Shown piece after piece: positions 40,331 through 63,965 of a stretch of 64,000 nt of DNA (positions within the stretch are counted from its first letter, which is position 1; each line of letters begins with the position of its first letter). A model generated the notes under the pieces. That model was not told the DNA's origin and did no database searches. It worked only from the letters and a program-made list of their open reading frames with translations. Both the position numbers and the translations under genes were made by a program. The DNA is from Candidatus Latescibacterota bacterium (GTDB lineage: Bacteria > Krumholzibacteriota > Krumholzibacteriia > WVZY01 > JAKEHA01). The stretch lies in assembly GCA_963707635.1 (NCBI GenBank), contig OY970173.1, forward strand, positions 864,001 through 928,000. Reading direction: 5' to 3'.

Positions 40331-41113
40331 ATGAAGCGAGTTTGTGCGCGCCTGTGGGCGCTGGGGCTGGTGCTGCTGATGCTGCCGATTGGCGCGGCGT
40401 ACGGGCAGGCCGGCCTTCCCAAGGAAAACCACTACAAGGTCTACCGGACCAACCCGATACCGTTCACCCGGCCGCTGATTCTGACCGATCAGTTCGGTGT
40501 CGTGAACGCCGGCTTTTTCCAGCTCGAGAAGTTCGCAAATCCGACCGAGAAGATTCACGACGGCCGCATTTACCCCATGGACGATCCGCTTGCGCATCAG
40601 ACGTGGTGGAGGCTCATGGATCCTGTGCCGCAGCCGACGCGGACCGTGATCGGGATCGACCAGTTCTCCTACGGTCCGGTGACGCTCGGCAGACCGGTGT
40701 ACCTCCTGAACCCGGCGTTGAAGAATGCGTATCCGCCGGCCGCCCCGCCGATTCGGAACCACTATCTGTGCTACGAGGTGCTCGGGAGCCAGCCGCTATA
40801 CAAGACGGTCATCCTGACCGATCAGTTCGGGACAAGCGACGTCGTGGTCATGAGGTCGAAGCTGTTCTGCAATCCGGTGGAGAAGCGCGAGGGCGCGGTC
40901 TTCTACCCGATTCTCGACTTTGCGGCTCACCTGCAGTGTTACGAGGTCCAGAACCCGCAGTTCGTTGTCCGCCAGGTTACGGCCCTCGATCAGTTCGGCT
41001 ACTGGCAGATTCAAACCTATGAGAACGACTGCCTGTGCGTGCCGGCGCTGAAGGAACACATCGTCAGCACGGAAAAGACGACGTGGGGTCAGATCAAGGC
41101 GTTGTACCACTAG
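40331..41113 (+). CDS. Secreted DQFG-repeat protein with WGQIKALY tail (paralog 1)
   Basis: Signal peptide (...AAYG/Q); internal repeats HY.CY...DQFG...NP..K; ends EKTTWGQIKALYH. Confidence 0.85.
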   Translation: MKRVCARLWALGLVLLMLPIGAAYGQAGLPKENHYKVYRTNPIPFTRPLILTDQFGVVNAGFFQLEKFANPTEKIHDGRIYPMDDPLAHQTWWRLMDPVPQPTRTVIGIDQFSYGPVTLGRPVYLLNPALKNAYPPAAPPIRNHYLCYEVLGSQPLYKTVILTDQFGTSDVVVMRSKLFCNPVEKREGAVFYPILDFAAHLQCYEVQNPQFVVRQVTALDQFGYWQIQTYENDCLCVPALKEHIVSTEKTTWGQIKALYH

Positions 41114-41137
41114 AAGCGGTGGGTTAATCACGATGAC

Positions 41138-41186
41138 GTTCTCGCCTCGCGGGGGCGGGCATGGGCCAGCTCCGCGGGGCGAGGAC
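41138..41186 (+). repeat. Conserved 3' hairpin after paralog 1 (also at 42077-42125 and 43163-43211)
   Basis: GTTCTCGCCTCG...CATGGG...GGCGAG/GGCGGG long GC stem present after all three paralogs. Confidence 0.7.
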
Positions 41187-41251
41187 AGTCTTCGTAACCC
41201 CGCCAAAGCATTTCACGTTTTGCAGGAGGTTGCTGCAAGGAGGCTTCTGCT

Positions 41252-42052
41252 ATGAAGCGAGTTTGCGCGCGCCTGTGGGCGCTGGGGCTGGTGCTGCTGA
41301 TGCTGCCGATCGGCGCGGCGTACGGGCAGGCCGCCCTTCCCAAGGAAAATCACTATAAGGTCTACAACACTACGACCATTCCCTTCTTCCGGCCGCTGAT
41401 CTTGAACGATCAGTTCGGCACCATGAACGCCACCGAACTCCGGTTGGAGAAGTTCGCGAATCCAACCGAGAAGGTTCATAACGGCATCGTCTATCCCATG
41501 GACGACCCTCTCGCGCACCAGACCTGGTGGCGGCTTGTCAGTCCGGTGACCCAGCCGTTGCGGACGGTGATCGGGATCGACCAGTTCGGTTACGGGCCAT
41601 TGACGCTGGGCAATGCGGTGTACCTCCTGAACCCGGCGCTGAAGAACCCGGGTCCGGGTGGGGGCACGCCGCCGCTCCGCAACCACTACCTGTGCTACGA
41701 AGTGCTGGGGAGCCTGCCGATGTACCAGCCGGTCATCCTCACCGATCAATTCGGGTCGAGCGACGTGGTGGTCGTGAGGATGAAACTGTTCTGCAATCCG
41801 GTCGAGAAGCAGGAGGTCCTGCCCGATGGGACCATCAAGATCTCTCCGATTCTCGACTATCGTGCGCACCTGAGTTGCTACCAGGTCCAGAACCCGCAGC
41901 CGAACTTCCATCCGATCTACTTCGTCGATCAGTTCGGTTACTGGCAAAACGAGACCTATGACAACGACTGCCTGTGCGTGCCGGCGCTGAAGGAGCATAT
42001 CGTCAGCACCGAGAAGACCACGTGGGGGCAGATCAAGGCGTTGTACCGCTAG
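41252..42052 (+). CDS. Secreted DQFG-repeat protein with WGQIKALY tail (paralog 2)
   Basis: Signal peptide identical to paralog 1; same repeats; ends EKTTWGQIKALYR. Confidence 0.85.
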   Translation: MKRVCARLWALGLVLLMLPIGAAYGQAALPKENHYKVYNTTTIPFFRPLILNDQFGTMNATELRLEKFANPTEKVHNGIVYPMDDPLAHQTWWRLVSPVTQPLRTVIGIDQFGYGPLTLGNAVYLLNPALKNPGPGGGTPPLRNHYLCYEVLGSLPMYQPVILTDQFGSSDVVVVRMKLFCNPVEKQEVLPDGTIKISPILDYRAHLSCYQVQNPQPNFHPIYFVDQFGYWQNETYDNDCLCVPALKEHIVSTEKTTWGQIKALYR

Positions 42053-42160
42053 AAGCGGTGGGTTGATCACGACGGTGTTCTCGCCTCGCGAGCGCGGCCA
42101 TGGGGCCGCGCCGGGGGGCGAGAGCAACCTCACTCGCCCGCGCCTCCCTTGACTGTCACG

Positions 42161-42338
42161 TTGACACCGTGGCGCCCGTGTGCTAGAGTCCATCCGCCTC
42201 GAACGGGACGCCGCCCCCTCCCGTAGATTCGCCCGGCGAATCGCCTTCCTGCGTCCCCGCATCGTTCCCGCGCGAAGCAGCGTAGTTCCAGAGCATTGCC
42301 ACGTTTTTGCAGGAGGTAGCTGCAAGGAGGTATTTGCT
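42161..42338 (+). promoter_or_regulatory. Sigma70 promoter plus conserved structured 5' leader (copy B)
   Basis: TTGACA-17 bp-TAGAGT with extended TG; leader begins CGCCTCGAACGGGACGCCG at 42195. Confidence 0.65.
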
Positions 42339-43130
42339 ATGAAGCGGTATTGCTTGCGTTTCTCGGCGCTGGGCCTGGTGCTGCTGTTGCTGCCGATCGG
42401 TGCGGCGTACGGGCAGGCCGCCCTCCCGTCGGAGAACCATTACAAGGTCTACAACATTTCGCCGACGTACCCGCTGACCAAGCCGCTCACGCTGGTCGAT
42501 CAGTTCGGCGTTGTGAGTGTCGATCACCTCTTCCTCGATCGTTTCGCAAATCCCGCCGAGAAGCGGATCCCCGAAACCGGTCAAGGGTTCCCAATCATTG
42601 ATCCGCTGGCGCACCAGAAGTGGTGGCGGATCGACGTTCCGCAGCCGGTCCGGGAGGTGATCGCCATCGATCAGTTCGGGTATGGTCCGGTGAAGCTCGG
42701 CAACGCAGTGTACCTGTTGACTCCGACGTTGAAAAACCCGCTGCCGCCGATCGGCCCGCTGCCGTACCGGAACCACTACCTGTGCTACGAGGTGCTCGGC
42801 AGCCTGCCGCTGTACAAGCACGTGGTGCTCGTCGATCAATTCGGTATTTCCACCAACGTGACTGTTCTGCAGCCGAAGCTGTTTTGTAATCCCGTGGAGA
42901 AGCATGCGGATGGGCAGACCTACCCGATCATGGACTATCGGGCCCACTTGCAGTGCTATCAGGTCGACAACCCGATTGTTGAGCCTCGTGGTGTGGTGGC
43001 GTACGACCAGTTCGGCTATCACCAGTTTTCGACGTACCAGAACGACTGCCTGTGCCTGCCGGCGCTCAAGGAGCACATCGTGGGCACGGAGCGCTCCACG
43101 TGGGGCCAGATCAAGGCGTTGTACAGATAG
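42339..43130 (+). CDS. Secreted DQFG-repeat protein with WGQIKALY tail (paralog 3)
   Basis: ATG 42339 after AAGGAGG; same architecture; ends ERSTWGQIKALYR. Confidence 0.85.
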   Translation: MKRYCLRFSALGLVLLLLPIGAAYGQAALPSENHYKVYNISPTYPLTKPLTLVDQFGVVSVDHLFLDRFANPAEKRIPETGQGFPIIDPLAHQKWWRIDVPQPVREVIAIDQFGYGPVKLGNAVYLLTPTLKNPLPPIGPLPYRNHYLCYEVLGSLPLYKHVVLVDQFGISTNVTVLQPKLFCNPVEKHADGQTYPIMDYRAHLQCYQVDNPIVEPRGVVAYDQFGYHQFSTYQNDCLCLPALKEHIVGTERSTWGQIKALYR

Positions 43131-43226
43131 AGCGGTAGTCAGTTAGCCTGCTCGACCAGGGCGTTCTCGCCTCGTGAGCGCGGCCATGGGTCCGCGCCGC
43201 GAGGCGGGAACAGCCTCCCGCATGGT

Positions 43227-43862
43227 TCAGTCGATTCCGATGGCTTTCACGATGGCGTGGTGCACGTCGTCGATGCTCCTCGTCCCGTCGATTCGAACCA
43301 CCCGGCCGAAGCTCGCCTCGTACACCGGCATCAATCGCTCGTAGTTGGCGGCAATCGTGTCCAGGTAGGCGCGCGTCTCGTACACGGATACGCCGCCGCG
43401 GCGGGCGGTCACGCGCGCGAGGCATTCCTCCACCGGGACGGCGAGGAACAGCGTCAGGTCCGGCCGCGCGCAGCCTTCATTCACCTCGATCACCCACTCG
43501 CCCGTGATCGACGGTTCGAGCGTCTGGTAGGCCATCGAGGAGAAGATGTAGCGGTCGCACACGACGTGGTCGCCCGCGGCGAGCCGTGTTTCGATGACGC
43601 GCGAGTGCGCCATCCGGTCCGCGGCGAAGAGGAGTCCCATGGTGCGCTCGCCGGGGTGGTAGGGGGTGCCATCGCCGCCGCGCTCCTGGCTCGTCAGCAG
43701 GCGACGGATGAATGCTCCCACCGGCTCCGAAGTGGGTTCATTGGTGAGGAAACTATGGCGTCCGCTCCGCGTAAGATGGGTCTGGAGCCTGGCGGCCTGG
43801 GTCGTGGTGCCCGCGCCGTCGAGGCCCTCCAGAACGATGAACCGTGCGTCGTGTTGGGGCAT
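43227..43862 (-). CDS. tmk: Thymidylate kinase
   Basis: FIVLEGLDGAGTTTQ, EPT, LLFAADR, CDRY..SS.AYQ, PDLT. Confidence 0.92.
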   Translation of the reverse strand: MPQHDARFIVLEGLDGAGTTTQAARLQTHLTRSGRHSFLTNEPTSEPVGAFIRRLLTSQERGGDGTPYHPGERTMGLLFAADRMAHSRVIETRLAAGDHVVCDRYIFSSMAYQTLEPSITGEWVIEVNEGCARPDLTLFLAVPVEECLARVTARRGGVSVYETRAYLDTIAANYERLMPVYEASFGRVVRIDGTRSIDDVHHAIVKAIGID

Positions 43863-44106
43863 GGTGCGCATCCCGCGGCAGCCGGCGGGCATTCGCCGAG
43901 TCTAGCAGGCGCGCCGAAAGTGGAAAAGGTCGGGTTGCCGCGCGGCGCCGATCCATATTATATTTCGGCGGCTTAGGGGGACGGACTCCCGCCCTGCGCC
44001 GGCCGATCGGCGCCCGTCCGCCACGCGCGAGGAATTGTGGAATGTATGTTGCAACTCAAGAAAAACAGGCCGGTTAGGCGTCGATCCGCCCAGGAGGCGT
44101 AATCCA

Positions 44107-45789
44107 GTGAAGCGCATCTCCCCACGTCATCTCATCATCGCGGTCTCCTTCCTCGCGTTGTGCCTCGTCGCTTTCGGCGCCTTCGGCCAGAGCAAAACCC
44201 GGGAAGAGAGGACGGACGTCTACCACGACCTCGAGATCTTCACCAAGATCCTCGAAAAGGTCTCGCAGAACTACGTCGACGAAGTCGACACCCACCTTCT
44301 CATGAAGAAGGCGATCGAGGGGATGCTCAGCGAGCTCGATCCCCACAGCCAGTACCTCGACGGTCTGGAATACGAAGACCTGATGGTCAGCACCAAAGGG
44401 GAGTTCGGCGGGCTCGGGATTCTGATTTCGTTCCGCGACAATTTCCCGACCGTGATGTCGCCCATCGACGACACGCCGGCGGCGCGCGCGGGCATCCGCG
44501 GCGGCGACCAGATCGTCGAGATCGAGGACCAGTCGACGGAGGGGTGGAACGTCGACAAGGCGGTGGGCCAGCTCCGCGGCGACCCGGGCACGAAGGTGCG
44601 CTTCAAGATCCGGCACGCCGGCGACGCGGAGTCGATCGAGTACGTGCTCACGCGCGAGGTGATCAACGTTGCCAGCGTTCCCTACTACGGAATGATGAGC
44701 GACGGCGTGGGGTACCTGCGTGTATCCAACTTCGCCAAGAAGACCGCGCAGGAAGTGGAAGAAGGACTGGCGGACCTCGAGAAGCAGGGCATGCGCGCGC
44801 TCGTGCTCGACTTCCGCTCGAATCCGGGCGGCCTGCTGCAATCCGCGATCGAGGTGTCGGAACTCTTCCTCGACAAGGACAAGCTGGTCGTCTACACGAA
44901 GGGGCGGCTGGCCAGCGCGAATCGGAAGTACTACTCCTCGAATCGGGCCACGCACAAGGGCTATCCGATCGTCGTCATGATCAACGGCAACAGCGCCAGT
45001 GCGTCCGAAATTTTCGCCGGTGCGATGCAGGACTGGGACGCGGCGTTCGTCGTGGGGCAGACGTCGTTCGGCAAGGGCACCGTGCAGACAGTGTTCAACC
45101 TCACCGACACCGAGGCGGTGAAGCTCACGACCGCGAAGTACTACACCCCCTCGGGGCGCAGCATCCACAAGGACGAGCGCGAGCGCCAGGCCGAGGAGGA
45201 TCTCATCGCCATGAACGACGGTGGCGGCGAGGATAACGCCGGGCTCACGCCCGACGCGCCCGAGCAGAAGCTCGACGCCGGCACGTCCGAGGTGAAGGAG
45301 CTGAAAGACGCGAAGGAGAAGCCGGTGTTCTACACGTCCAGCGGTCGCACCGTCTACGGCGGCGGCGGGATCACGCCGGATCTGGACTACATCCCGCGCG
45401 AATACACCGACCTCCAGCGCCGGCTCGAGCGCGACGGGCTGGGATTCTCCTTCGCCATCGACTGGCTCAAGTCGCACCCGATCACCGAGTCCTTCAAGGT
45501 GACGGACGCCATTCTCGCCGACTTCTATAAGTTCCTCGCGACCAAGAAGTTCGAGTACAAGAAGGAAGAGCTTACTCCCGACAACGTCGACTACATCCGC
45601 ACGATGATTGCGCGCGAAGCGGTGAACAACAAGTTCGGCCGCAAGGCGATGTACCGCGTGGTGCTCGACTCCGACCCGGAGATGCAGGAAACGCTCAAGA
45701 TCATCGAGAAGCACCCGACCCTCAAGGACATGTTCTCGTACTCGGACGACGAGAAGAACGTCAAGAAGGCCGCAGCCGCCAAGAAATAG
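44107..45789 (+). CDS. S41 carboxyl-terminal processing protease (CtpA-like)
   Basis: Signal peptide, LDPHS, PDZ (GGLGI), DFRSNPGG, SASASEI, SFGKGTVQ, TTAKYYTPSG. Confidence 0.93.
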   Translation: MKRISPRHLIIAVSFLALCLVAFGAFGQSKTREERTDVYHDLEIFTKILEKVSQNYVDEVDTHLLMKKAIEGMLSELDPHSQYLDGLEYEDLMVSTKGEFGGLGILISFRDNFPTVMSPIDDTPAARAGIRGGDQIVEIEDQSTEGWNVDKAVGQLRGDPGTKVRFKIRHAGDAESIEYVLTREVINVASVPYYGMMSDGVGYLRVSNFAKKTAQEVEEGLADLEKQGMRALVLDFRSNPGGLLQSAIEVSELFLDKDKLVVYTKGRLASANRKYYSSNRATHKGYPIVVMINGNSASASEIFAGAMQDWDAAFVVGQTSFGKGTVQTVFNLTDTEAVKLTTAKYYTPSGRSIHKDERERQAEEDLIAMNDGGGEDNAGLTPDAPEQKLDAGTSEVKELKDAKEKPVFYTSSGRTVYGGGGITPDLDYIPREYTDLQRRLERDGLGFSFAIDWLKSHPITESFKVTDAILADFYKFLATKKFEYKKEELTPDNVDYIRTMIAREAVNNKFGRKAMYRVVLDSDPEMQETLKIIEKHPTLKDMFSYSDDEKNVKKAAAAKK

Positions 45790-45817
45790 CCCCGGCGCCG
45801 TTTCGCCCCGAGAGACG

Positions 45818-46492
45818 ATGAAGAAGATCGCCGTCCTATGCGATTTCGATGGCACGGTCGCCCAGGACGACGTGGGCAACCGGCTTTTCCGCACCTTCTC
45901 GCAGGGTGGTGCGACCGACGTGGTGGAGCGCTGGAGGCGCGGCGAGATTTCCTCGCGCGAGTGCCTCGAGAAGGAGGCCGAGCTGGCCCGGTGCTGTCCC
46001 GACGAGCTCAAGCGCTTCGTGCACACGCACCGGCTCGACCCCTACTTCAAGGATTTTCACGACTTCGCGCGGCAGCGCGGCATCGAGGTCGTCGTGTTGA
46101 GCGACGGCCTCGATTATTATATCGAGCAGCTCCTGATGCGCAACGGGCTGGGCGGGATCGAGTTCTTCGCGAACCGGCTCCACGTCGACGGCGGGACGCT
46201 GCGCGTCGAATTCCCGTGGTACAACCTGCTCGCGTGCACCGAATGCGGGTGCTGCAAAACCCACCACCTCTTCCGCTACCGGAACGAAGGCTACTACATC
46301 GTCTACGTGGGGGACGGTCTCTCCGATCGCTGCCCGTGCGAGAGCGCGGACCTCGTGTTCGCGAAGGGAAACCTGCTGGAGCACTGCCGCGCCCGGAAGA
46401 TCGCGCACGTCGAATTCCGCAACTTCCGCGATGTCGAACGCGAGGTGCTCAGACGCCTGCTGCTGAGCGGGGAGTTTCGTAGCCCGGCGTAG
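45818..46492 (+). CDS. MtnX-like HAD-IB phosphatase
   Basis: CDFDGT, VLSDG, CGCCK, YVGDGLSD.C. Confidence 0.9.
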   Translation: MKKIAVLCDFDGTVAQDDVGNRLFRTFSQGGATDVVERWRRGEISSRECLEKEAELARCCPDELKRFVHTHRLDPYFKDFHDFARQRGIEVVVLSDGLDYYIEQLLMRNGLGGIEFFANRLHVDGGTLRVEFPWYNLLACTECGCCKTHHLFRYRNEGYYIVYVGDGLSDRCPCESADLVFAKGNLLEHCRARKIAHVEFRNFRDVEREVLRRLLLSGEFRSPA

Positions 46493-46502
46493 CGTCGCCG
46501 GG

Positions 46503-47024
46503 CTAGCGGGCTGGCCCCGACGCCGAGTCCGAGAAATCTTCGCGGTGCGCTTTCTTGTATTCCTCGAACCCCGCCCAGAACGCAGAGTCGTACTGCGTCG
46601 AGTCGAAGCCCAGCTTCACCATGCCCGCCTTTGGATTCAGCACCGGGTGGTCGACGGATCCCTCGTCGAGGTTATAGCGCGGTTCGTCTTTGTACGTGGA
46701 GTAGCCGACCTCGGCCATAAAGTGGACCAGGTTGGTCGCGGTGATGTGCCCGCGCTGGACGTGCGACTCGAGCTCCTTCGAGATCGCCGCCAGCGTCTCG
46801 GGCTTGACCTTGCCGAGGGCCGCACGGTCGTACAGCACATAGAACATCTTGCGGATCTCGATGATGTGGTTGTCGGAAAGGCTGTCGGGCAGGATGGCGA
46901 CGAACTGCTCGACCATCCGATCCTGTTTCGCCCGGGGAGACTGCTGGCGCTGGTAGACGAGGCCGACCGCCAGCCCGACCGCGGTGACGGCCAACAGCAC
47001 GATGGCAAGACGTCGTGGCTTCAT
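46503..47024 (-). CDS. Hypothetical protein with N-terminal membrane anchor
   Basis: MKPRRLAIVLLAVTAVGLAVGLVY, then protein-like sequence; 3' part of ORF 46503..47885. Confidence 0.7.
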   Translation of the reverse strand: MKPRRLAIVLLAVTAVGLAVGLVYQRQQSPRAKQDRMVEQFVAILPDSLSDNHIIEIRKMFYVLYDRAALGKVKPETLAAISKELESHVQRGHITATNLVHFMAEVGYSTYKDEPRYNLDEGSVDHPVLNPKAGMVKLGFDSTQYDSAFWAGFEEYKKAHREDFSDSASGPAR

Positions 47025-47083
47025 GGCGGTCAATATAGCGCCTGAGCGGATGGCGATCAATGCGGGCGTCGCGGCGCGCGCCT

Positions 47084-47995: not shown

Positions 47996-48128
47996 GGAAT
48001 CGTGCGCTCGCACGCCAGCGTGCGATTGGGTTCGCGAGTGCAGCGCAACCATAGGCAATTCTCGTTGTCGTTGCAAGAGTTAGCCGTTGCGTCGCGCGTG
48101 CCTTCCCGGTATCATGGGACGACTACGT

Positions 48129-49166: not shown

Positions 49167-49188
49167 TACCAGGGGCCTTTCAACCGCG

Positions 49189-49255: not shown

Positions 49256-49273
49256 TTGTAGCCATTGCGACAC

Positions 49274-53413: not shown

Positions 53414-53774
53414 CCGCTATCGCCTGTTAGGGAAGAGCGGGCTTCGAGTTTCCCCGCTTGCACTCGGCACCATGACGTTCGGCACCGAGTGGGGATGGGG
53501 AACGGAGAAAAACGAATGCCGCCGGATCTTCGAGGCATACCTCGGGGCCGGCGGCAATTTCGTCGATACCGCCAACAAGTACACGGAAGGCACCAGCGAA
53601 ACCATGCTGGGCGAGTTTCTCGCCGGCCGGCGCGACACGATCGTGCTCGCCACCAAGTACACGTTGTCGATGCGCCCGGACGACGCGAGCGCGATCGACC
53701 TCGGCTATCCGCACGTGTTCCTGAAGAGCCCGAGTGTCACGAAACTCATCTACGGGGGAACGAAGATCGAGTAG
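53400..53774 (+). pseudogene. Aldo/keto reductase with large in-frame internal deletion
   Basis: AKR N-terminus (YRLLGKSGLRVSPLALGTMTFG, DTANKY, VLATKY) joined directly to an AKR-type C-terminus (ASAIDLGYPH...IYGGT); ~124 aa versus ~350 typical. Confidence 0.75.
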
Positions 53775-53809
53775 CCCGCGACATCGCTGTATCACGTCGC
53801 CCTGACGCC

Positions 53810-56687
53810 ATGCGTTTCGCCTCCCGCATCGCTTTCACGGTCATTGCCGCGCTGCTCGCGGGTCAATCGCCCGCGGCTCCACCATCGCGCCCGGCCCCGA
53901 CCACTCCCGCCGACTCGCTCTGGGGGCTCGTCGAGCCGTTGTTCGCGGCCGGCAAGTTCGATTCGATCCTCATCCGGCTCCCGTCCGTCATCCGCCATGC
54001 CGAGGCGATAGGGGATTCGACGCTGCTCGGCCGGGCGATCACGCAGCGAGGCCGCGTCTACCTCATGACGGGCGACCCACGCACCGTCCGCGACCTCGAT
54101 CTCGGCGTCCGGATCGCGGAGGCGATGCGCGACACGGTCGGGCTCATGCCGGCGGTCCATTTCCGGGGATTCGCGTACGCCGGGCAGGGCGACTACGACG
54201 ACGCCATGCGCTGCTACCAGCGGCGGCTATTCCTCGCGCAGCGCTCGCGCGCCCCCGCCGACGAGGCGTGGGCGCGCACCAGCATCGCATTCCTGCTGCA
54301 CCAGCGCGGGGACCATCGAGGCGCCAAGGCGGAATACCTGCGCGCGATCGCGCTGTTTCGTTCGGCGGGGCGCCCCGAGCTCGAGTTGACCGCGCTCGTC
54401 GGCCTGGGGCGCGTGGAGAGCGCGCTCGGCGACCAGAACGAGGCGATCCGTTGCTATCAGCGTGCGTGGGTCGTTTCCCGCCAGACGGGCGATCGGGTCA
54501 ACGAGATGTGGGCCACCAACAACCTCGCCGTGCTGGAAGAGACTCGCGACGACTTGAGCCGGTCGGCTGAGTACCAGAAACGCGCCTACGAGATCGCCAA
54601 GGAACTGAAATCTCCTCAAGCACTCGTTATCCTCGCCAGCAACCTGGCCACCCGCGCCAGCGATCTCGGTGATTTTGCGGGCGCGGACGCGCTCCTGGAA
54701 GAGACCGAGCAATTCTGCCGCAAGCACAACATGGAGGACCAGAACGAGGTCCGGTACCACATCGCGGAGTTGCGGCTGGTCGAGGGACGATATCGAGAGG
54801 CAGCGACCATCTTCCGGGAGCTCACGACGGGGGCGTCGCTCGAACAACAGCACCGTGACCGCGCGATTCTCGGGCTGGCCCGGGCGCTGGCGGCGAGCGA
54901 CAGTATGGCGCAGGCGCGCGCGCTGGTGGAAGCACGGCTGCGAAGCAAGGAAGAGCTCTACGGCGACGTGCGGCCATATTTCTATCTTTTCGCGGCGCGG
55001 ATGTGCGCGGATGCGAACCAGCGCGAAAGAGCACTCGAGTTCGCCACGCGCGCACGCCGGGCGGCGGAGGGTCTCGGGCAGTCGCACACCGCGGCGTCGA
55101 CCCGGCTGCGCGAGAGCGTCTATTATCGCAAGCTGGGTCGCCACGCCGAAGCGATCGCCAGTCTCGAAACCGCTCTCGACAGTCTGGAAGCGTTCCGTGG
55201 AGGGATCAGCACTGCGGAGTGGCGCGAGGTCTACGGCCAGGAGATTGCCCGAACGGTGATCGAGGCCGCGCGGGTCCTGCTCGTGTTCCCCGATTCGCTC
55301 CCCCGCGCGCGACGGGAGGAAGCGTTCTTCGACACCATGCAGCGTTTCAAGACCCGCACGCTGCTCGAGCGCATCAGCGAGCCGCGTTTCGGGTCGGACA
55401 TCGCGTCGGGTCGCTGGTCGAGCCGTCCGGCCACCATGGACGACCTTCAGGCCGTCCTGCAGCCCGGGGAGGTCGTGCTCGATTTTCTGGTCGGAGACGA
55501 GACCTCGTTCCTCTTCGCCGTCTCGCCCGACACGTTTCAGTTCGTCGAGCTCCCCGGGCCGGCTTCGCCGCTCGCCCAACGCGTCGAGCTCTTCCGGCGA
55601 CTGATCTCGAGCACGGACCCGGCGCTGCGCGCGCAGTATCCGCCCGAACGACTGGCCGTAATTCAGCGCGCCCTCGGCCGCGAGGTGCTCGGCGGCGTGG
55701 CGAATCTGGTGATCGCGTCGCAGTCGCGTGTTCGTTTCTCCTGACGGCTTCACCTCCATGGTTCCGTTCGGCGTGCTCGTGCTGGACGATTCCGGAGAGG
55801 TGCTCATGGCGGACCGCGACGTCGCGCAGGTGCCGTCGGCGAGCATCCTGGTCCGGCAACGAACCGCGCAAGCTCCCACGTGTACCGGCGCAGCGAGGGT
55901 GATGGCGGTTGCCGCGTCCGGATCGCGACTGGAAGGCGCCCGCGACGAGATCGACGACCTCGCGCGCGGCTATCGTCACGTGGTCCGGACGTCGACGCTC
56001 ACCGGTTTGGACGCTTCCACGGCAAACTCCGAGCGCTGCGATGTCCTGCACATCGCCGCCCACGCCCTCGTCGTCGACCATTCGCCGTGGGACTCCGGAA
56101 TCCGGCTCGGTCGCAACGCACCTGGCACCCCGCCGGCCTCCGGGGCTTCCACCCTCCGCGCGGACACGACGGCGATCCTTTCCACGGCGGACTCGCTGCT
56201 CGTGGCCCGCACCTTCCCCGGCGATCCGTTCCTGCGGGCGTGGCAGATCGCGCGGCTCGCGCTGCCCGCGAAGCTGGCGGTGCTCTCCGCGTGCGAGACC
56301 GCCGGGGGGCGCGTCACCAGCGGAGAAGGCACGCTCGGTATCACCGCCGCGTTCATGAGCGCGGGCGTGCCGGTGGTGGTCTCGAGTCTGTGGCCGGTCG
56401 ACGACCGGGCGACGCAGCGCATCATGCACGTGTTCTACCGGCGCCTGGCGGCAGGCGAGCCCGTCGCGACCGCGCTTCGTCTAGCCCAGCTCGAGGTGAG
56501 CCGGTCGGCAGAAACATCCCATCCGTTCCTCTGGGCGGGCTTCACGGTGGTGGGGGACGGGTCGGCGACGATCGCGATCGACAGAAAGCCGTGGGGCGCG
56601 ATCCTGGGGCTCGCGCTGACCCTGGTGCTGTTTGCGGTCGCGCTGGCCGCCGTCCGGCATCGACGGACCCGGCAGGCCGTGGGATAA
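53810..56687 (+). CDS. Exported TPR-CHAT (caspase-like) protease with C-terminal TM helix, frameshift near 55730
   Basis: Signal peptide MRFASRIAFTVIAALLAG; TPR array; VSPDG...VPF, LHIAAHA (His), VLSACET (Cys), SLWPVDD, HPFLWAGF; hydrophobic tail followed by RHRR. Confidence 0.82.
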
Positions 56688-56712
56688 TTGCCGAAGCACA
56701 TGCTCGTGCACT

Positions 56713-56780
56713 AGCGGGTGGCGCCGGACCGGGGCCCCCGCGGCGGACGCCGCGGGGTGGGACGGCGACAGGACCCGCGA
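56713..56780 (+). repeat. Dispersed palindromic intergenic repeat, copy 2
   Basis: Matches 49189-49255; loop GGAC versus TTCT. Confidence 0.85.
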
Positions 56781-56813
56781 GGTTGACGACAGAAAAGTTC
56801 CGTGTGACGAATC

Positions 56814-57416
56814 ATGACCGAGCCGTCTAAACCAATAGGGGCGGGTGCCGCGGACGAGGACCTGCTCCAGGTCGTGCGACACGACCCGGATCCGGTCCGC
56901 CGCCGCCTGGCAGCGGTCGAGCTCGTGACCCGCTATCGCGACGCGGTTTACCTCTGGTGTTACCGGTACACCCGGGACACCGAACGCGCGCTGGACGTGT
57001 CGCAGGACGTGCTCGTTACGGTTTGGGAGAAGATCGGCACATTCGAAGGGCGGTCGAAGTTCTCGTCGTGGCTGTTCTCGATCACGCGCAACCGGTGCAT
57101 CGATGGCAGCCGGCGGGTGGATATTCTGGCCGACGAGCCGATGTCGGAGGACCTGCCCGACCCGGCGCCGCTCCCGGACGCTGCGTTCGCGGATGGGGAA
57201 GACGAAGGCTGGCTGCTCCGCACGATTCGTACCGAGCTGGCGCCGGACGAACAGGGAGCGATCTGGCTCCGTTGCGTGGAGCGCCTGCCGGTCGATGAAG
57301 TAACGCGCATCCTGGGGATCGACGGCGCCGCCGGCGCCCGAGGGGTGTTGCAGCGCGCGCGGCGCAAGTTGCGCGCGGCGATGGAGCGTCGCGAAGGCGG
57401 GGGGAGGAGAGTATGA
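56814..57416 (+). CDS. ECF RNA polymerase sigma factor
   Basis: DVSQDV, FEGRSKFSSWLFSITRNRCID (region 2); region 4 ending LQRARRKL. Confidence 0.9.
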   Translation: MTEPSKPIGAGAADEDLLQVVRHDPDPVRRRLAAVELVTRYRDAVYLWCYRYTRDTERALDVSQDVLVTVWEKIGTFEGRSKFSSWLFSITRNRCIDGSRRVDILADEPMSEDLPDPAPLPDAAFADGEDEGWLLRTIRTELAPDEQGAIWLRCVERLPVDEVTRILGIDGAAGARGVLQRARRKLRAAMERREGGGRRV

Positions 57417-58074
57417 CGGAAATCAAGTGCGTCGAGGCCGAGCGAATCGGCAATGTGCTCGAGTATCCGGCTGACCATCCGGTTCGCCGGCACACGGAGG
57501 AATGCCCGCGGTGCCGGTCGCTCGTGCAGAGTTATCAGGCCTTCCTGGAAGCGGCGCCCGACGCGGGCGCGGGTGTGTCGGACGCTCGGCCACGGCTGGA
57601 CGCGGCGATCCGGCGTGGCGCCGACGCGGCATTCCCCGCGGAGTCACGCGCTCCCTTTCCAATGAAGTCGCAGGGATGGTGGCGCGCGTGGGTGCGGCCG
57701 CTTCCGGCGCTTGCAACCGCCCTGGTCATCGTGGCCGCGGCGGTGCTGCTCTGGCCGCGTGACGAACAGACCTCGCTGCTTCGTGAGAGCGGACAGGCCA
57801 CCGATGCCTGGAATCTGTCGGCCTCGGCTGCCGATGGATCGGTACTTCTGTCATGGAACGCGATGACCGGTGCCGACGCCTACGAGGTTCGCATCTACGG
57901 CGCCGAGCTCGACGAACTGCTGCGGCTCCCTTCCGCCGGGACGTCCCTCGCGGTGGATCGATCGGCTCTTCCCGCGGATCTGCCATCCGGCGCGGACCTG
58001 ACCTGGGTTGTCACCGCTCTCCGGGGCGGCGACGTGTGCAGACCTCGCCTCCGGGTTCGTTGCGGTTGCCGTAG
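57413..58074 (+). CDS. Zinc-finger anti-sigma factor (ZAS) with TM and Fn3-like extracytoplasmic domain; probable frameshift near 58035
   Basis: HTEECPRC (HxxxCxxC); TM ALATALVIVAAAVLLW; LLSWNAMTGADAYEVRIY; coupled to the sigma gene (ATGA); likely end VQTSPPGSLRLP* in another frame. Confidence 0.75.
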
Positions 58075-58157
58075 TCGCCCGCAAGATGGTAATTGCGCGC
58101 TAGACACGCCCCGATTGCCGGCTTGGCAGGTCGCGTGGATCGCGCTAGCATGGAGCC

Positions 58158-58979
58158 GTGATCGAGCACGACCAACAAGGTGTCCGCTTCTACACCTTCG
58201 ACTCGCTCGACGCGCGCGAAGATGTAATCGCGTTTGTCACCACGCGCACCGCCGGCGAGAGCCGGGGCCCGTACGCGTCGCTCAACCTCGGCATGCGTTC
58301 CGGCGACGACCCTGCCGTCGTGGCGCGCAACCGCGCGCGGGTAGCGGCGCTTGCGAACGCGCCGTCGTTCCTGCTCGGCAAGCAGGTGCACGGCAAGCGC
58401 ATCGCCGTCGTCCCCGACGGATACTCCGGCGGCGCATTCGAAGATACCGATGCCCTGATCACCCACGCGACCGCTACCCCGCTGGCCGTGCTGACCGCCG
58501 ACTGCGCGGCGGTATTTCTCTTCGATCCGAAGCAGCACGCGATCGGCATCGCGCACGCGGGCTGGCGCGGGACGGTCGCGAACATCGCGGCGCTCACGGT
58601 GGTGCGCATGGGCGACGAATTCGGCACTGATCCGGCGGATCTCGTCGCCGGGATCGGGCCGTCGATCGGGCCCTGCTGCTACGAAGTCGGCGCCGAGGTG
58701 ATCGACGCGTTCGCGGATGCGAACGCGGAGATGGCCGATGAAGTGCTCGTCGATCCGGATCTCGCCTCGGCGGGGAGCTTCCGCGCTTCCGTGAACGAGG
58801 GACGCAAGCACCTCGACCTGTGGCGCGCGAACGAGCTCGTGCTGGTTGCGGCCGGTCTGAGCGAGGATGCGATCGAGGTGTCGCACCTGTGCACGGCGTG
58901 CCGCCGGGACCTCTTCTATTCGCATCGCGGCGAAAAGGGCGTCACCGGGCGCTTCGCGGGCGTGATCGCGCTCCGGTAA
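58158..58979 (+). CDS. pgeF: YfiH/PgeF family protein
   Basis: SLNLG, QVHG, LTADC, HAGWRG, GPSIGPCCYEVG, FYSHR, TGR. Confidence 0.92.
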   Translation: MIEHDQQGVRFYTFDSLDAREDVIAFVTTRTAGESRGPYASLNLGMRSGDDPAVVARNRARVAALANAPSFLLGKQVHGKRIAVVPDGYSGGAFEDTDALITHATATPLAVLTADCAAVFLFDPKQHAIGIAHAGWRGTVANIAALTVVRMGDEFGTDPADLVAGIGPSIGPCCYEVGAEVIDAFADANAEMADEVLVDPDLASAGSFRASVNEGRKHLDLWRANELVLVAAGLSEDAIEVSHLCTACRRDLFYSHRGEKGVTGRFAGVIALR

Positions 58980-59062
58980 CTGCCCGAGACCCCTTGCTAC
59001 TCCCGCCTGGCGCCCGTATGATGGAAGCGTCATCCGGTCACGCCAACCGCGAGGAGTCATCG

Positions 59063-59629
59063 ATGCCCGAGCCGCAGATCGACGTCGCCCGCTACTACAA
59101 CGGCGGCCTTTCATGGCCGCAGTTTCTCGCGTCGGCCGCGGACAACGCAGACCGCATGCGCGCGTTCTACGACGCCTTCGAGTTCGACGAGGACACGCTC
59201 TCGTTCTTCAACGGGCGCACGCCGCTCCAGGTGCTGGCGATCGCGGAGGACTGGTGCCCGGACGTGGCGCAAAACGTCGCCGTCGTCGCCCGCGTGTCCG
59301 CCGAGGTTCCGGGCATGGAGTTGAGCGTCGTCCGCCGCGAAGAATGCCCCGAGTTGATGGACGAGTACACCACCGGCGGCAAGCGGCGTATCCCCGTGAT
59401 TGCGTTCTTCGACATGACGTTTCGCGAGCTGGCGCGGTGGTCCGGGCGTTGCCGGTCGGCGGATCGCTGGATCTTCGACGAGGTGCTCAAGGGCGGGCGC
59501 GATGTCACGGTGCTGAAGGGCGAACAGAAGCAGCGCTTCGACGCCGAATACGACACGCGCTACCGCGACACGTACGTGTGGGAAACGATCGCGGAGTGGC
59601 AGCACCTGCTGGAGGACCAGGACTACTAG
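59063..59629 (+). CDS. Thioredoxin-like protein (monothiol WCPD)
   Basis: IAEDWCPD, RRIPV; GAGGAG SD. Confidence 0.82.
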   Translation: MPEPQIDVARYYNGGLSWPQFLASAADNADRMRAFYDAFEFDEDTLSFFNGRTPLQVLAIAEDWCPDVAQNVAVVARVSAEVPGMELSVVRREECPELMDEYTTGGKRRIPVIAFFDMTFRELARWSGRCRSADRWIFDEVLKGGRDVTVLKGEQKQRFDAEYDTRYRDTYVWETIAEWQHLLEDQDY

Positions 59630-59636
59630 AGGAATC

Positions 59637-60050
59637 ATGAACGACTGGGTCAAAGTGGCATCGTTCAGCCAGCCCTTCGAGGCCCACCTCGCGCGCACGA
59701 GGCTCGAGGCGGAAGGCATCGCCTGCGTCGTGAGCGACGAGTACCTGGTGCGCGTCGACTGGCTCCTGTCCAACGCGATCGGCGGGGTCAAACTCATGGT
59801 GCCCGCCGGGGAAGCGGCGCGCGCGCGCGAGACGCTGCGGCCGCGTCCGCACCTGGTCGTGGTCGCCCAGGCGGGCACGCCGTCGGATGGTGAGATGATC
59901 TGCCCGCGCTGCCGGTCCTACGACGTCTACTACAGCCATTACAGCCGCCGGATCGCCGGCGTGTTCATCCTGCTGCTCGGATTTCTCGTGCCGTGGCGGG
60001 ACCGTCGCTGGTCCTGCACGCAGTGCGGCTACGAGTGGAAGGAACGCTGA
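59637..60050 (+). CDS. DUF2007 (putative signal transducing) protein with zinc ribbon
   Basis: EAHLARTRLEAEGI...GGVKLMV; CPRC...CTQCGYEW around a hydrophobic segment. Confidence 0.82.
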   Translation: MNDWVKVASFSQPFEAHLARTRLEAEGIACVVSDEYLVRVDWLLSNAIGGVKLMVPAGEAARARETLRPRPHLVVVAQAGTPSDGEMICPRCRSYDVYYSHYSRRIAGVFILLLGFLVPWRDRRWSCTQCGYEWKER

Positions 60051-60054
60051 CGGA

Positions 60055-60540
60055 ATGGTCGATTCGGCCGGGAAGCCGGAACTCCCCGCCCCTCATGTCG
60101 AGGCCATACGCCGCCAGACCGCGATCATGGTCGGCGCCTTAGGGGTATCGCTGGTGACGTGCCTGGTGGTGGTCGAGGTGTTCCGCCGGTCTCGGCCCGT
60201 CACCCCTGCCATCACGGGGCTGGACCAGATCCGTATCGCTCTGTTCGTGGTCGTCGCCGTGTTGATTTTCACCTCGACCGTCCTCAAGAGCCTCCTGTTG
60301 CGTCAGCCGTCTCCCGACCCGGCGCTGCGCCTGGCGCGCATGCGCACCGCCACCATCCTGGCCGCCGCCATGGCGGAACTTCCCGCCATGCTCGGCCTGG
60401 TGCTATTCATCCTCGGCGGCTCGCAGAACGATTTCTACGTCCTCGCCATTGTATCGCTCTACATGCTCGTGCGACACTTCCCGCGCCGGGAACCCTGGGA
60501 CGCCTACGTGCAGCGCGGCGGCACGCATTCCGTGCGGTAG
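60055..60540 (+). CDS. Four-TM hypothetical membrane protein
   Basis: Four hydrophobic segments, AELPA..G, HFPRR.W. Confidence 0.75.
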   Translation: MVDSAGKPELPAPHVEAIRRQTAIMVGALGVSLVTCLVVVEVFRRSRPVTPAITGLDQIRIALFVVVAVLIFTSTVLKSLLLRQPSPDPALRLARMRTATILAAAMAELPAMLGLVLFILGGSQNDFYVLAIVSLYMLVRHFPRREPWDAYVQRGGTHSVR

Positions 60541-60609
60541 TGGCACAGCGGGTGGCGCCGACGGGCTGTCGGCGCCAGCACCCGCGGAGACCGACTTCAA
60601 GAGACAGCC

Positions 60610-61312
60610 ATGCTGGACCTCCGTCGCTTCGACGTCATTACTTTCGACTGCTACGGGACACTGATCGACTGGGAGACGGGGATTCTTTCCGCGCTGACGT
60701 CGTTTCGCTCCGAAAACAACCTGCGCGTCGCGGACGACGAGCTGCTGGAGAGTCTACGCCGCCCTCGAGACCGTGCTGCAAAGCGGGGATCACGTGAGCT
60801 ACCGCGAGGTGCTGCGCGGCGTCATGCGCGGACTCGCGACGCGGTATTCGGTCCCGACCAGCCGCATCGACACCGACGCGCTGGTGGCGTCGCTTCCGAC
60901 CTGGCCGCCGTTTTCCGACACGGTGGACGCGCTGCACCGGCTGCGCCGGCACTGCAAGCTGGGCATCATCAGCAACATCGACGACGAACTCTTCGCGGCC
61001 ACGTCGCTCGCGCTGGAGGTGCCCTTCGACTGGGTGATCACCGCCGAGCAGGTGCGCGCGTACAAGCCGTCGCGGCAGAACTTCGAACAGGCGCTGGAGC
61101 GGATCGGGATTCCGAAAGAACGCGTGTTGCACGCCGCCCAGAGCCGCTTCCACGACGTGGCACCGGCGAGCGCGCTGGGACTCGCCACCGTGTGGGTGAA
61201 TCGTCGGGGCGACAGGCCGGGCGCGGGCGCGACGGCGCCCTCGGACGCAACCGCGGACCTCGAGGTTCCCGACCTGGCGACGCTCGCCGACCGCATGGAG
61301 GCGCGCGCGTGA
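60610..61312 (+). CDS. Haloacid dehalogenase type II (HAD), frameshift near 60750
   Basis: TFDCYGTLIDWETGI in one frame; WPPFSDT, ISNID, YKP, HAAQSRFHD in the frame of ORF 60773..61312. Confidence 0.85.
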
Positions 61313-62253
61313 TCTGGAAGCCGATCGTGCGCGGGCTGGTGACCTATTTCCCGCCGATCGAGAAGCGCATCGCCAAGTCCACCCGCGGGACCGATTCCGC
61401 GCGCTACTGCTACTCGGTGTGGCTCCGGCACCTGGTCATGGCGCGCGCGAACGGGCTGGCCGACGACCCGCGCGTCGTCGCCGAACTGGGGCCGGGCGAT
61501 TCGCTGGGTATCGGGTTGGCCGCGCTGCTCACCGGGGCCTCGCGCTATGTCGGTCTCGACCGGGTCGCGTACGCCGACCCGTCGCGAAATGCCGCCGTGC
61601 TCGACGAACTGGTGGCGCTGTTTCGCGCGCGCGCGGCGATTCCCGACGCGGGTGAATTCCCGGAACTGAAGCCCTATTTGCCCTCCTACGAATTCCCGTC
61701 CGCGTTGCTGCCGTCCGCGCGCATGAGCGCCTGCCTGCTGGAGACGCGCGTGGACGCGATCCGCGCCGCGCTGCGAAGCATGAACGACGAATCGGGTGCC
61801 ATCACGATGGCGTATCGCGCGCCGTGGTTCGACCCGTCGGTCGTGCGCCGCGGCACGATCGACATGATCTACTCGCAGGCGGTGCTCGAGCACGTCGACG
61901 ACCTCGGCGCTACCTACGCCGCGCTGGCGGAGTGGCTCAAGCCGGGCGGGGTCGCATCGCACCAGATCGGATTCGTCTCCCACGGGTTGACCCCGGAGTG
62001 GAACGGTCACTGGGCCATCGCCGACCCGGTCTGGAAGGTGATCCGCGGCCGCCGGCCGTACCTCCTCAACCGCGAGCCGGCCTCGACGCACGTCCGCCTC
62101 ATCAAGCGCTCGGGGCTGAATGTGGCCGGCGAGGTGCGCGTGCAGATCGCGAGCGGGATCGAGCGCTCCCGGCTGGCGCGCCGGTTTCGGCAGATGTCCG
62201 ACGAAGACCTCACCACCAAGGCGATCTTTCTGCAGGCCGTCAAGCCGGCGTGA
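61309..62253 (+). CDS. SAM-dependent methyltransferase
   Basis: ELGPGDS, DMIYSQAVLEHV, LKPGG; GTG start overlapping the HAD stop. Confidence 0.85.
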   Translation: MIWKPIVRGLVTYFPPIEKRIAKSTRGTDSARYCYSVWLRHLVMARANGLADDPRVVAELGPGDSLGIGLAALLTGASRYVGLDRVAYADPSRNAAVLDELVALFRARAAIPDAGEFPELKPYLPSYEFPSALLPSARMSACLLETRVDAIRAALRSMNDESGAITMAYRAPWFDPSVVRRGTIDMIYSQAVLEHVDDLGATYAALAEWLKPGGVASHQIGFVSHGLTPEWNGHWAIADPVWKVIRGRRPYLLNREPASTHVRLIKRSGLNVAGEVRVQIASGIERSRLARRFRQMSDEDLTTKAIFLQAVKPA

Positions 62254-62267
62254 GGTAGCCGCCGGCG

Positions 62268-63122
62268 TCAGCGCGGCGTGCGCGCGGCCACGACGATCCC
62301 GGGGAACGGCAGGCGTGAGAGGTTCCGGCGAAGGCCACGGGGCAGCGCGCCGAGGGCCACTTCCAGCGCGCAGACCAACCCGATCGGCAGCCGCGCCGAG
62401 AAGCCGCGTGCGCTCCAGATCGCGGTCACCGTCCGATAACCGCACGCGTGCAACGCCGCGTTCAGCTCCCGATACGTCCATTCCTTCAGGTGGAATCCCT
62501 CCGCGTTGCCCCGGGTGAAATAGCGCGAGATGTCGTGCGGCCCGGTGAACCGGTGCGGGGTTCGCAGCAGGTACGTCCCGCCGGATACCAGCGCGCGGGC
62601 CACGGCGCGAAGATGCAGCTCCGCGTCGTCGGGGTGGAGGTGTTCGAGCAACTGGTCGCTGAAGGCGAGGTCGAACGAGCGGGCGGCGAACGGAAACTCG
62701 AAGCCGTCGTAGAGCACGAGCGCAAAATTGCGCGCCGCGGCGTCCAGGCGCGCGCCCTTCGACGAGATTTCCACTCCGCAGACGAAACGGACCCGCGGAG
62801 CCAGCTCGATGCCGAATGCACAGTCTCCCGCGCCGACTTCGAGCACGCGCAAGCCCGGGGTGAGAAACGGGGCGAGGAGCCGGAGCTTGCGGTGGTTGCG
62901 GCGCGCGACTTCGCCGGGGGTCTCGCGCAGAACCAGGCGCGGGTGGTCCGGCACCTCCGCGAAGAGCGTGTCGTACATGGTCTCGTAGATCTTCGCGCGC
63001 TCGAGACGCGTCGGCGCGCTTCGCAGCCGGTCGGCCAGGGCCCGTTCGACGTCGTAGTGGTGCCGGAGCCGGTCCGCCGAGCGGCGACGGTCGGGGGAGG
63101 TTCCCTTGTGCGCGGTGTTCAA
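62268..63122 (-). CDS. Class I SAM-dependent methyltransferase (start uncertain: TTG 63122 or ATG 63158)
   Basis: VLEVGAGDC, FDLAFSDQLLEHLHP, GPHD, HLKE; GGAG before TTG. Confidence 0.85.
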   Translation of the reverse strand: MNTAHKGTSPDRRRSADRLRHHYDVERALADRLRSAPTRLERAKIYETMYDTLFAEVPDHPRLVLRETPGEVARRNHRKLRLLAPFLTPGLRVLEVGAGDCAFGIELAPRVRFVCGVEISSKGARLDAAARNFALVLYDGFEFPFAARSFDLAFSDQLLEHLHPDDAELHLRAVARALVSGGTYLLRTPHRFTGPHDISRYFTRGNAEGFHLKEWTYRELNAALHACGYRTVTAIWSARGFSARLPIGLVCALEVALGALPRGLRRNLSRLPFPGIVVAARTPR

Positions 63123-63207
63123 TCCATTCTCCACCGGGGCGAGGTGTGGGCGCATCATAGCATCGAACCCCGATGGCCGCATCGCCTTCCCGGCGGTGCG
63201 CGCACGC

Positions 63208-63244
63208 AAAAAAACGCCCGGCGCGATGTCGCACCGGGCGCTTT
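63208..63244 (-). terminator. Intrinsic terminator
   Basis: Minus strand CGCCCGGTGCG-ACAT-CGCGCCGGGCG followed by T7. Confidence 0.85.
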
Positions 63245-63269
63245 CAATCAGACAGCGATTAAGGCAGGG

Positions 63270-63965
63270 CTAGCGGTAGAGCGCCTTGACCGAACCCCAC
63301 GAAACCGGGTTGGTCGGAAGCGTGTTCATCCGCGCGATGAAGATCCAGTCGCGCGATCCGCTGGTGCCCGGCTGGAGCCAGCCGTTGCCCGACCAGATCG
63401 ACGGGTCGTTCGCGACGGTCGTGTTGCCCTTCGAGTCCCAGTCGTTGTCGAAGATGAACGAGCAACCCGTGGCGTCGGTCAAATCGGTGAAGGTGAACGT
63501 CTGGTTACCGCCCCAGCCGTCCAGATGGACCGTCCCGGAGTTGAGCGCGCTATCATCCGTGACATAGACGTCGTTGCCCGCCGCGCCGGGGCAGTTGTCT
63601 CTCTGCGTCACGTTCGCCGTGTACCAGAAGTCGATGTCGACCCAGCCGCGGCTCGAGGCGGACCACCCGCCGCCGGTATCCTGTCCGCCGTAGGCACGTC
63701 CGTAGATGTGCACCGTGCCCGCGCCGTTGTCGTACACGAGCGTCATGGCCGCCGAGCCGCTGCCGTTGACGAAGTCGAAGCTGAACGTCCACTCGCCGCT
63801 CCCCAGGAGATCGTCGAGACGGAGTCCGTACATCGGCGGGTTGATGACGCCGTCCGGATGATCGTGAAGTGTGAAAACGGTAACGCCGGCGGTCGCGGGA
63901 ACTGTGGCGACGCCGCCGACGAAAGCGCCGACGAGCAAGGTCGCCAGCACGGCACGTTTGAACAT
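63270..63965 (-). CDS. Secreted beta-rich protein with SWGSVKALYR tail
   Basis: Signal peptide MFKRAVLATLLVGAFVGGVATVPATA; GGAGG SD; ends TNPVSWGSVKALYR. Confidence 0.85.
   Translation of the reverse strand: MFKRAVLATLLVGAFVGGVATVPATAGVTVFTLHDHPDGVINPPMYGLRLDDLLGSGEWTFSFDFVNGSGSAAMTLVYDNGAGTVHIYGRAYGGQDTGGGWSASSRGWVDIDFWYTANVTQRDNCPGAAGNDVYVTDDSALNSGTVHLDGWGGNQTFTFTDLTDATGCSFIFDNDWDSKGNTTVANDPSIWSGNGWLQPGTSGSRDWIFIARMNTLPTNPVSWGSVKALYR

Follow-up and report, generated by a model that had tools for sequence, protein, structure and literature searches.

Background

The described systems closest to the element considered here are the C-terminal domains (CTDs) which direct cargo to type IX secretion systems (T9SS), and the C-terminal tripartite sorting signals, for which positional criteria are given in the accessible part of a preprint by Haft (bioRxiv 10.1101/2023.06.07.544157). 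The accessible part of a report on Prevotella intermedia (PMC11969387) describes short T9SS CTDs of 40-55 amino acids, a precedent for a shortened signal; they coexist with long CTDs in one genome and are cleaved and glycosylated after a PT/GI-type site, a cleavage consensus determined in that species. According to the same text, the motifs B, D and E, which are bound by PorV, and the beta-strands are present in both long and short CTDs.

Here we describe a 16-residue tail found at the C-termini of exported proteins of the Krumholzibacteriota. A reading of the sequence alone (hereafter the sequence-only reading) had noticed it on four proteins in a stretch of 64,000 nucleotides (the window, C1:864001-928000) of a 3.2-Mb genome assembled as a single contig (C1) and 96% complete (the source genome, G000), and had taken it as a candidate protein-sorting signal. 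The four open reading frames (ORFs) with signal peptides and nearly identical ends at the stop codon were as described there, and from the present analysis the tail is almost certainly a real functional tag on envelope proteins. We found no description of the tail, nor of the T9SS in Krumholzibacteriota, in the full-text literature searched, which held few subscription journals and no supplements; the tail is apparently undescribed there and is likely a label for protein sorting.

Results and discussion

Sequence and position of the tail

The tail has the consensus [VLI]-[APS]-[TV]-E-x-x-[TS]-W-G-x-[VI]-K-[AS]-L-Y-[RK], 16 residues directly followed by the stop codon. When 48,065 six-frame stop-to-stop ORFs of the source genome were searched with the regular expression [TS]WG.[IVLM]K, 45 matches were obtained, of which 39 lay within five residues of the stop and 43 within nine. 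The reversed genome gave two matches and the complemented genome likewise two, none of them terminal, indicating that the excess of tails is not due to chance. In all, 43 ORFs of the source genome have the tail at their C-terminus, four of them inside the window, and the tail is thus not restricted to the four genes in which it was noticed. A profile made from these 43 tails returned 43 terminal matches of at least 12 bits in the same genome (the training sequences included), a degenerate terminal copy without the Trp residue (11.8 bits), and two non-terminal matches. One of these is a copy inside a two-domain lipoprotein; the other is an ORF at 1046182, which was not counted as a carrier since the motif there runs on for 29 residues. 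The strictly C-terminal position claimed by the sequence-only reading therefore holds almost always, but not for the internal copy in the two-domain lipoprotein, a conserved protein.

The tag begins about seven residues N-terminal to the Trp residue, with a linker that weakly resembles a T9SS cleavage region. The pattern [TVLIS][GASP][VIT][EDGQNS] was found at -7 in 33 of 44 tails, as against 9 of 1,320 other positions. In the predicted structure of the fourth window protein (the 63270 protein), the tail forms a 7-residue helix (residues 196-202 of a 204-residue model) with low confidence (predicted local distance difference test, pLDDT, about 62), and the W, K and Y/F faces of the tail helix are invariant. 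The mean hydrophobicity of the 10-residue core was 0.02, consistent with the absence of a transmembrane helix as originally suggested. The tail had also been described as amphipathic, which was not borne out: the helical moment of the core was 0.42, compared with 0.33 ± 0.16 in shuffled sequences (45 cores), so that the core is not clearly amphipathic. Membrane anchoring through an amphipathic helix, which we considered, was left unsupported by this moment, lying within one standard deviation of the shuffles. The tail is not covered by any Pfam or NCBIfam model, in agreement with the earlier statement that it matches none of the sorting systems listed there, and a sequence search of the PDB with the tail profile gave weak matches, the best of which (E 0.073) was an internal stretch of an endoglucanase chain.

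Passengers and distribution of the tail

Diversity of passengers and enrichment of signal peptides had been put forward as checks by the sequence-only reading, and both favour a sorting signal. The 45 candidate ORFs fell into 29 BLAST clusters, the named passenger domains being DUF7450, CHRD (two), lamin-tail, cupredoxin, DUF4082 (a weak match) and a PepA-like domain which is known from PEP-CTERM proteins. No Pfam match near the cut-off was obtained for 34 of the 41 candidates that lie outside the window. Signal peptides were recognised by eye in 37 of the 43 carriers, and of the remaining six, four are fragments and two have one a short way upstream in a different frame. A permissive heuristic called signal peptides in 33 of 39 called tail genes, 72 of 100 genes with the FlgD_ig domain (the T9SS-type CTD of this lineage) and 899 of 2,399 others. 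By crude gene calls, the median length of the tail proteins was about 205 amino acids, compared with 610 for the FlgD proteins.

The profile matched all 121 phylum genomes sampled, with at least 5-67 matches per genome at E<=0.05; these counts are lower bounds, at most 74 candidates having been scored per genome. At 40 loci fetched from these genomes (the PorU2 loci, see below), the matches listed were all within four residues of the stop, and tail variants at these loci had F replacing W, or S or T replacing G. Among homologs of the window proteins, 82 of 91 for DUF7450 and 36 of 45 for the 63270 protein had the tail at their end. One tail protein (P0112) carries the NCBI label 'Eisenbacteria', which was not relied on, because 'Eisenbacteria' and 'Latescibacteria' (61% identity) also label homologs of a core lipoprotein of the Krumholzibacteriota.

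Two tail-bearing fragments of the source genome (C1:781960-782322 and 792591-793073) sit just after duplicated gene remnants, presumably of a ComM/YifB-like gene, suggesting integration sites. Single frameshifts interrupt many genes of this genome, including those of PorU2, several tail proteins and metG, which is expected when a long-read assembly is error-prone.

Exchange of the tail with known sorting signals

Of the 107 matches to FlgD_ig in the source genome, none was in a tail ORF. Two adjacent paralogs (1065854-1066558 and 1066653-1068143), 41% identical over 172 amino acids (E 3e-34), part at the same residue, one continuing as ...VP-LPTE and the tail, the other as ...VP-TGVG and the FlgD domain. 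In three distant homologs of the 63270 protein (P0043-P0045), PEP-CTERM-type tails, recognised by eye and regular expression, stand no more than two residues from the same place. On homologous passengers, the tail is therefore exchanged in register with tails of the FlgD/T9SS and PEP-CTERM types, a point that the sequence-only reading had proposed as a check. In 36 of 99 FlgD linkers, as against 45 of 847 background windows, T[GAS][VI] stands at a fixed distance from the PNP anchor (-15 to -19), and this motif matches the P. intermedia PT/GI consensus as given in the accessible part of PMC11969387. A further paralog of the 63270 protein (C1:180895-181659, 57% identical) stops in the linker after ...VPAQ and has no tail in any frame.

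T9SS components and a second PorU-like sortase

SprA (TIGR04189), PorV and PorU were all found together in the source genome. The canonical PorU (PorU1) adjoins PorV, and the two pass the cut-offs of NF033707 and NF033709 (PorU1, 529.5 bits on NF033707 with a cut-off of 420). In the phylum, 120 of 121 genomes had SprA above the cut-off, and 57 of 61 had canonical PorU above it. The model SprA_N (PF14349) had no match in the source genome and was also silent in the controls. As a whole, the T9SS of this genome comprises SprA, nine PorV-family barrels (at nine loci), two PorUs and about 100 FlgD-type cargo proteins, with no match to the GldM and GldN models.

One of the six C25 peptidases of the source genome, encoded outside the window at C1:2725491-about 2729600, is the second of these PorUs; we call it PorU2, as a working name only. 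It is split by a frameshift in the source genome and forms a whole ORF of about 1,400 amino acids in relatives, and it was matched at E<=1e-40 in 116 of 121 phylum genomes. When a genome collection was scanned with one PorU2 protein as the query, one locus was returned. PorU2 has the C25 domain (PF01364) and matches the PorU structure 6ZA2, including its CTD (E 1.7e-19), and its score on NF033707 (152-197 bits) is below the cut-off of 420. The His and Cys residues are kept in 40 of 40 sequences in the same columns as in PorU1, and PorU2 is thus predicted to be catalytically intact. In a quick tree with a single PorU1 and long outgroup branches, the 41 PorU2 sequences formed one clade (Shimodaira-Hasegawa approximate likelihood ratio test, SH-aLRT, 97) apart from the PorU1 of the source genome and four gingipain-like proteins.

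In the source genome, three tail genes coding for proteins of about 180 amino acids lie directly upstream of PorU2, in a stretch (C1:2729775-2732762) that also contains a dockerin-like gene (see below). We examined 40 PorU2 loci, taken from 39 of the 121 genomes; long contigs and a spread over families guided the choice. The profile trained on the source genome detected tail genes upstream of PorU2 at 26 of the 40 loci, and a wider regular expression, chosen after this result was seen, detected them on the same strand and directly upstream at 35 of the 40 (in 35 of the 39 genomes). With the same wider expression, tail genes were found near canonical PorU at 0 of 20 loci.

The dockerin-like gene, weakly matched (NF041540, 20 bits with a cut-off of 29), follows the three tail genes upstream of PorU2 in the source genome; the nearest named Atlas cluster has 16% cohesin members (score 0.89), which is a lead only. 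Second copies of the PorU2 clade without upstream tail genes were seen at G050:C1:1272200-1287500, where the copy comes after two FlgD-type cargo genes, and at G057:C2:740900-756200.

Possible role of the tail

The sequence-only reading had proposed an export or surface-anchoring tag with a machinery that it could not name. The tag is supported, and a candidate machine can now be named in the second PorU-like sortase, while for the tail itself we infer a role in export, anchoring or docking. The explanation that we tentatively prefer, giving it a little less than an even chance, is that the tail is a short helical T9SS-linked label on small signal-peptide proteins, which are cut in the linker and anchored to the surface by PorU2. 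The carriers would be exported by Sec to the periplasm, where the W-G-x-[VI]-K-x-L-[YF] helix would be recognised in place of a beta-sandwich CTD; passage via SprA would follow, the carrier possibly being one of the nine PorV-family barrels. By analogy with PT|GI, the cut by PorU2 would then fall between positions -7 and -6 of the linker (V|ST-E, L|PT-E), and the passenger would be transferred to a surface glycolipid or partner.

Several observations weigh against this explanation. The tail has neither beta-strands nor motifs B, D and E and is predicted to be helical. The likeness between its linker and the FlgD linker is weak (mean values in a position-specific scoring matrix of -7.2 at -7, -6.4 at -5 and about -11 elsewhere), and Pro occupies the putative P1' position in 10 of 39 tails. 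The GldM and GldN models had no match in the source genome, where no control genome passed their cut-offs either, and the motor and ring of this T9SS may be divergent or absent. Since the tail, SprA and both PorUs are nearly universal in the phylum, their co-occurrence cannot discriminate between readers of the tail. The linkage to PorU2 is absent at 5 of 40 loci (G078, both family f4 genomes examined and the second copies in G050 and G057), and the two f4 genomes still have at least 18-29 tail matches; moreover, the linkage covers only 1-7 cassette genes per locus, so that PorU2 might serve that cassette alone. Note that related genomes are not independent, and the linkage may thus be one ancestral event kept in 8 of 9 families. 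Finally, predicted lipoproteins also bear the tail (two clear and one probable among the 43 carriers, conserved in the genus), and an internal copy lies between the tandem domains of two-domain lipoproteins in G000, G108 and G128.

A docking helix accounts for this internal copy more readily than does an export signal that can be removed. In the strongest rival explanation, which we nevertheless consider unlikely, the tail is an uncleaved helix which docks in the groove of a shared envelope receptor or scaffold and clips small proteins there; the receptor might be a non-catalytic PorU2, the cohesin/dockerin-like cassette or the NTF2-like lipoprotein, possibly on a T9SS-exported carrier. The invariant W, K and Y/F faces on a free helix, and the presence of the tail on predicted lipoproteins and between repeats in three genomes, would be explained in this way. 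The tail-bearing lipoproteins belong to an NTF2-like array at C1:371617-375435, and the tail has also been gained in G078. The core NTF2-like lipoprotein of this array, found in 116 of 121 genomes, ends in a T[WS]G[YNF]L[RK]GxLR helix (pLDDT 98), a possible origin of such a helix-in-groove contact. The core lipoprotein itself (C1:374257-374862) matched the regular expression and was dropped as a tail carrier because its family reached no more than 5.2 bits on the tail profile, which also weakens the docking explanation; its look-alike helix is a possible origin of the tail, not a member. Docking, however, requires neither a conserved linker seven residues upstream nor in-register exchange with two cleavable signals, and a non-catalytic PorU2 is at odds with catalytic residues kept in 40 of 40 sequences.

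The array is part of a phylum-wide cassette (C1:371617-376805) comprising a probable outer-membrane barrel, which ends in Phe and has no Pfam match, the core lipoprotein and a tail-less paralog, and its last part consists of lineage-specific paralogs which have acquired the tail and in some cases also have a copy of it inside the protein. This cassette is a candidate for the origin of the tail or for its receptor.

It is improbable, in our estimation, that the tail is a minimal T9SS signal for canonical PorV and PorU1, with PorU2 acting on something else and the linkage reflecting a shared cassette function. PorU1 adjoins PorV in the source genome, both being above the cut-off, PorU1 passes in 57 of 61 genomes, and 5 of 40 PorU2 loci have no tail linkage. 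In the accessible part of PMC4804311, cleavage by PorU is said to be independent of sequence, and the final 22 CTD residues sufficed for export of GFP in Porphyromonas gingivalis; those 22 residues, however, form a beta-hairpin, whereas the tail is predicted to be helical and has no GxY motif. Furthermore, the tail linker is unlike the PorU1-type PT[GA]V linker, and tail genes adjoin canonical PorU at none of the 20 loci.

A similarly low probability is given to roles independent of the T9SS, in which the tail would be a periplasmic or outer-membrane anchoring helix or a recognition end for a tail-specific protease, such as the S41 peptidase of the window, or for exosortase. W, K and Y are typical membrane-interface residues; the core hydrophobicity of the tail (0.02) and a moment within one standard deviation of the shuffles are nevertheless too weak for a sole anchor. 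An S41/PDZ gene follows the DUF7450 genes of the window at about 0.9 kb, but this adjacency concerns 1 of 31 tail clusters, the only one examined for S41 genes. As for exosortase, the source genome has one without convincing PEP-CTERM substrates (screened by regular expression and for transmembrane tails), and some homologs of tail proteins have PEP-CTERM instead of the tail. Exosortase is, however, ruled out as the general reader by its distribution: 55 of 121 genomes have it (in family f6, 1 of 49), whereas the tail is present in 121 of 121, including all 66 genomes that lack exosortase. The exosortase gene of the source genome (C1:2034734-2035579) belongs to a polysaccharide locus, and a PorV-family gene lies at a distance of 3.5 kb.

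To return to the T9SS-linked label cut by PorU2, its wider form would be a parallel T9SS branch in the Krumholzibacteriota, in which a 16-residue helix, lacking both a folded CTD and a membrane segment, would suffice for export of small proteins and for their covalent surface fixing by a dedicated PorU paralog. We regard this as a possibility to be held with some reserve, rather below an even chance. If true, it would be a second cognate signal-sortase pair in the T9SS and, to our knowledge, the shortest T9SS-linked signal; the beta-sandwich thought to be essential would be dispensable for the recognition of T9SS cargo, a point relevant to the selection of cargo for SprA. Such a tag of 16 residues, paired with a sortase of its own, would also offer a compact means of surface display. 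Should the tail be a sorting signal, at least 5-67 proteins per genome, mostly unannotated, would make up a hidden surface proteome throughout an uncultured phylum.

Features of the window

The tail-bearing proteins of the window are summarized in Table 1. Their N-terminal signal peptides were called by eye and by a heuristic. The three DUF7450 genes are tandem paralogs; for the third, the ORF list gave a GTG start at 42180. The 63270 protein, which the sequence-only reading found dissimilar to these three, indeed forms its own BLAST cluster apart from them and has no Pfam or NCBIfam family match. In the predicted structure, an all-beta domain leads into a short helix at the terminus, and the passenger fold had no match in the PDB at E<=0.001. 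The S41/PDZ gene lies about 0.9 kb downstream of the DUF7450 genes. The two overlapping ORFs for the TPR protein and CHAT domain are probably one gene split by a frameshift, and are followed by a gene resembling an extracytoplasmic function (ECF) sigma factor, the sigma label having been given by eye.

Table 1. Tail-bearing proteins, their tails and other genes of the window (window numbering)
Feature	Positions	Strand	Family	Description
DUF7450 protein 1	40331..41113	+	PF24247	260 aa, signal peptide, ends ...TEKTTWGQIKALYH
Tail of DUF7450 protein 1	41063..41110	+		VSTEKTTWGQIKALYH, 16 residues, stop directly after
DUF7450 protein 2	41252..42052	+	PF24247	266 aa, signal peptide, ends ...TEKTTWGQIKALYR
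Tail of DUF7450 protein 2	42002..42049	+		VSTEKTTWGQIKALYR, 16 residues
DUF7450 protein 3	42339..43130	+	PF24247	263 aa from ATG at 42339, signal peptide, ends ...TERSTWGQIKALYR
Tail of DUF7450 protein 3	43080..43127	+		VGTERSTWGQIKALYR, 16 residues
63270 protein	63270..63965	-		exported all-beta protein, 231 aa, unrelated to the DUF7450 proteins, ends ...TNPVSWGSVKALYR
Tail of 63270 protein	63273..63320	-		LPTNPVSWGSVKALYR, 16 residues, predicted helix
S41/PDZ gene	44035-45789	+		C-terminal processing peptidase
TPR/CHAT ORFs	53489-57416	+		TPR protein and CHAT domain

Comparison with known sorting systems

With regard to the enzyme, the NCBIfam family NF052324 ('putative type IX secretion system sortase PorU2') is, like the PorU2 of this study, a PorU-related C25 paralog. 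The Krumholzibacteriota enzyme scores 63-109 bits on this model, far below the cut-off of 450, and is therefore not a member of that family.

With the tripartite signals (PEP-CTERM/exosortase, GlyGly-CTERM/rhombosortase and MYXO-CTERM), the tail has in common its C-terminal position, many copies, invariant residues, and unrelated passengers with signal peptides. It conforms to the positional criteria in the accessible part of Haft's text, and differs in having neither a transmembrane helix nor an Arg cluster, with one terminal Arg or Lys instead. The strict co-occurrence with exosortase that characterises those signals is not seen for the tail.

The T9SS type A CTD (TIGR04183/PF18962, here PF13860) is a beta-sandwich of 70-80 residues, whereas the tail has about 16 residues and is predicted to be helical. 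None of TIGR04183, PF18962 and PF13860 had a match in the 45 tail or candidate proteins, and the tail consensus TExxTWGxVKALYR contains no GxY strand pair and no motifs B, D or E. Even P. intermedia's short CTDs, as described in the accessible part of PMC11969387, keep three beta-strands, the motifs B, D and E and predicted PorV binding; the tail is a third of their length and has none of these. In addition, the passengers of the tail are smaller, and its genes are linked to the second PorU clade and not to canonical PorU. Lacking the transmembrane helix and Arg cluster of the one and the CTD fold of the other, the tail is a member of neither family. On the other hand, the T9SS type A CTD, with PorU (NF033707, 6ZA2) and PorV, likewise tags many unrelated signal-peptide proteins, and the two are alike in a small-residue linker before the signal (though with weak profile similarity), in the same position on a paralogous passenger and in the presence of the machinery in the genome.

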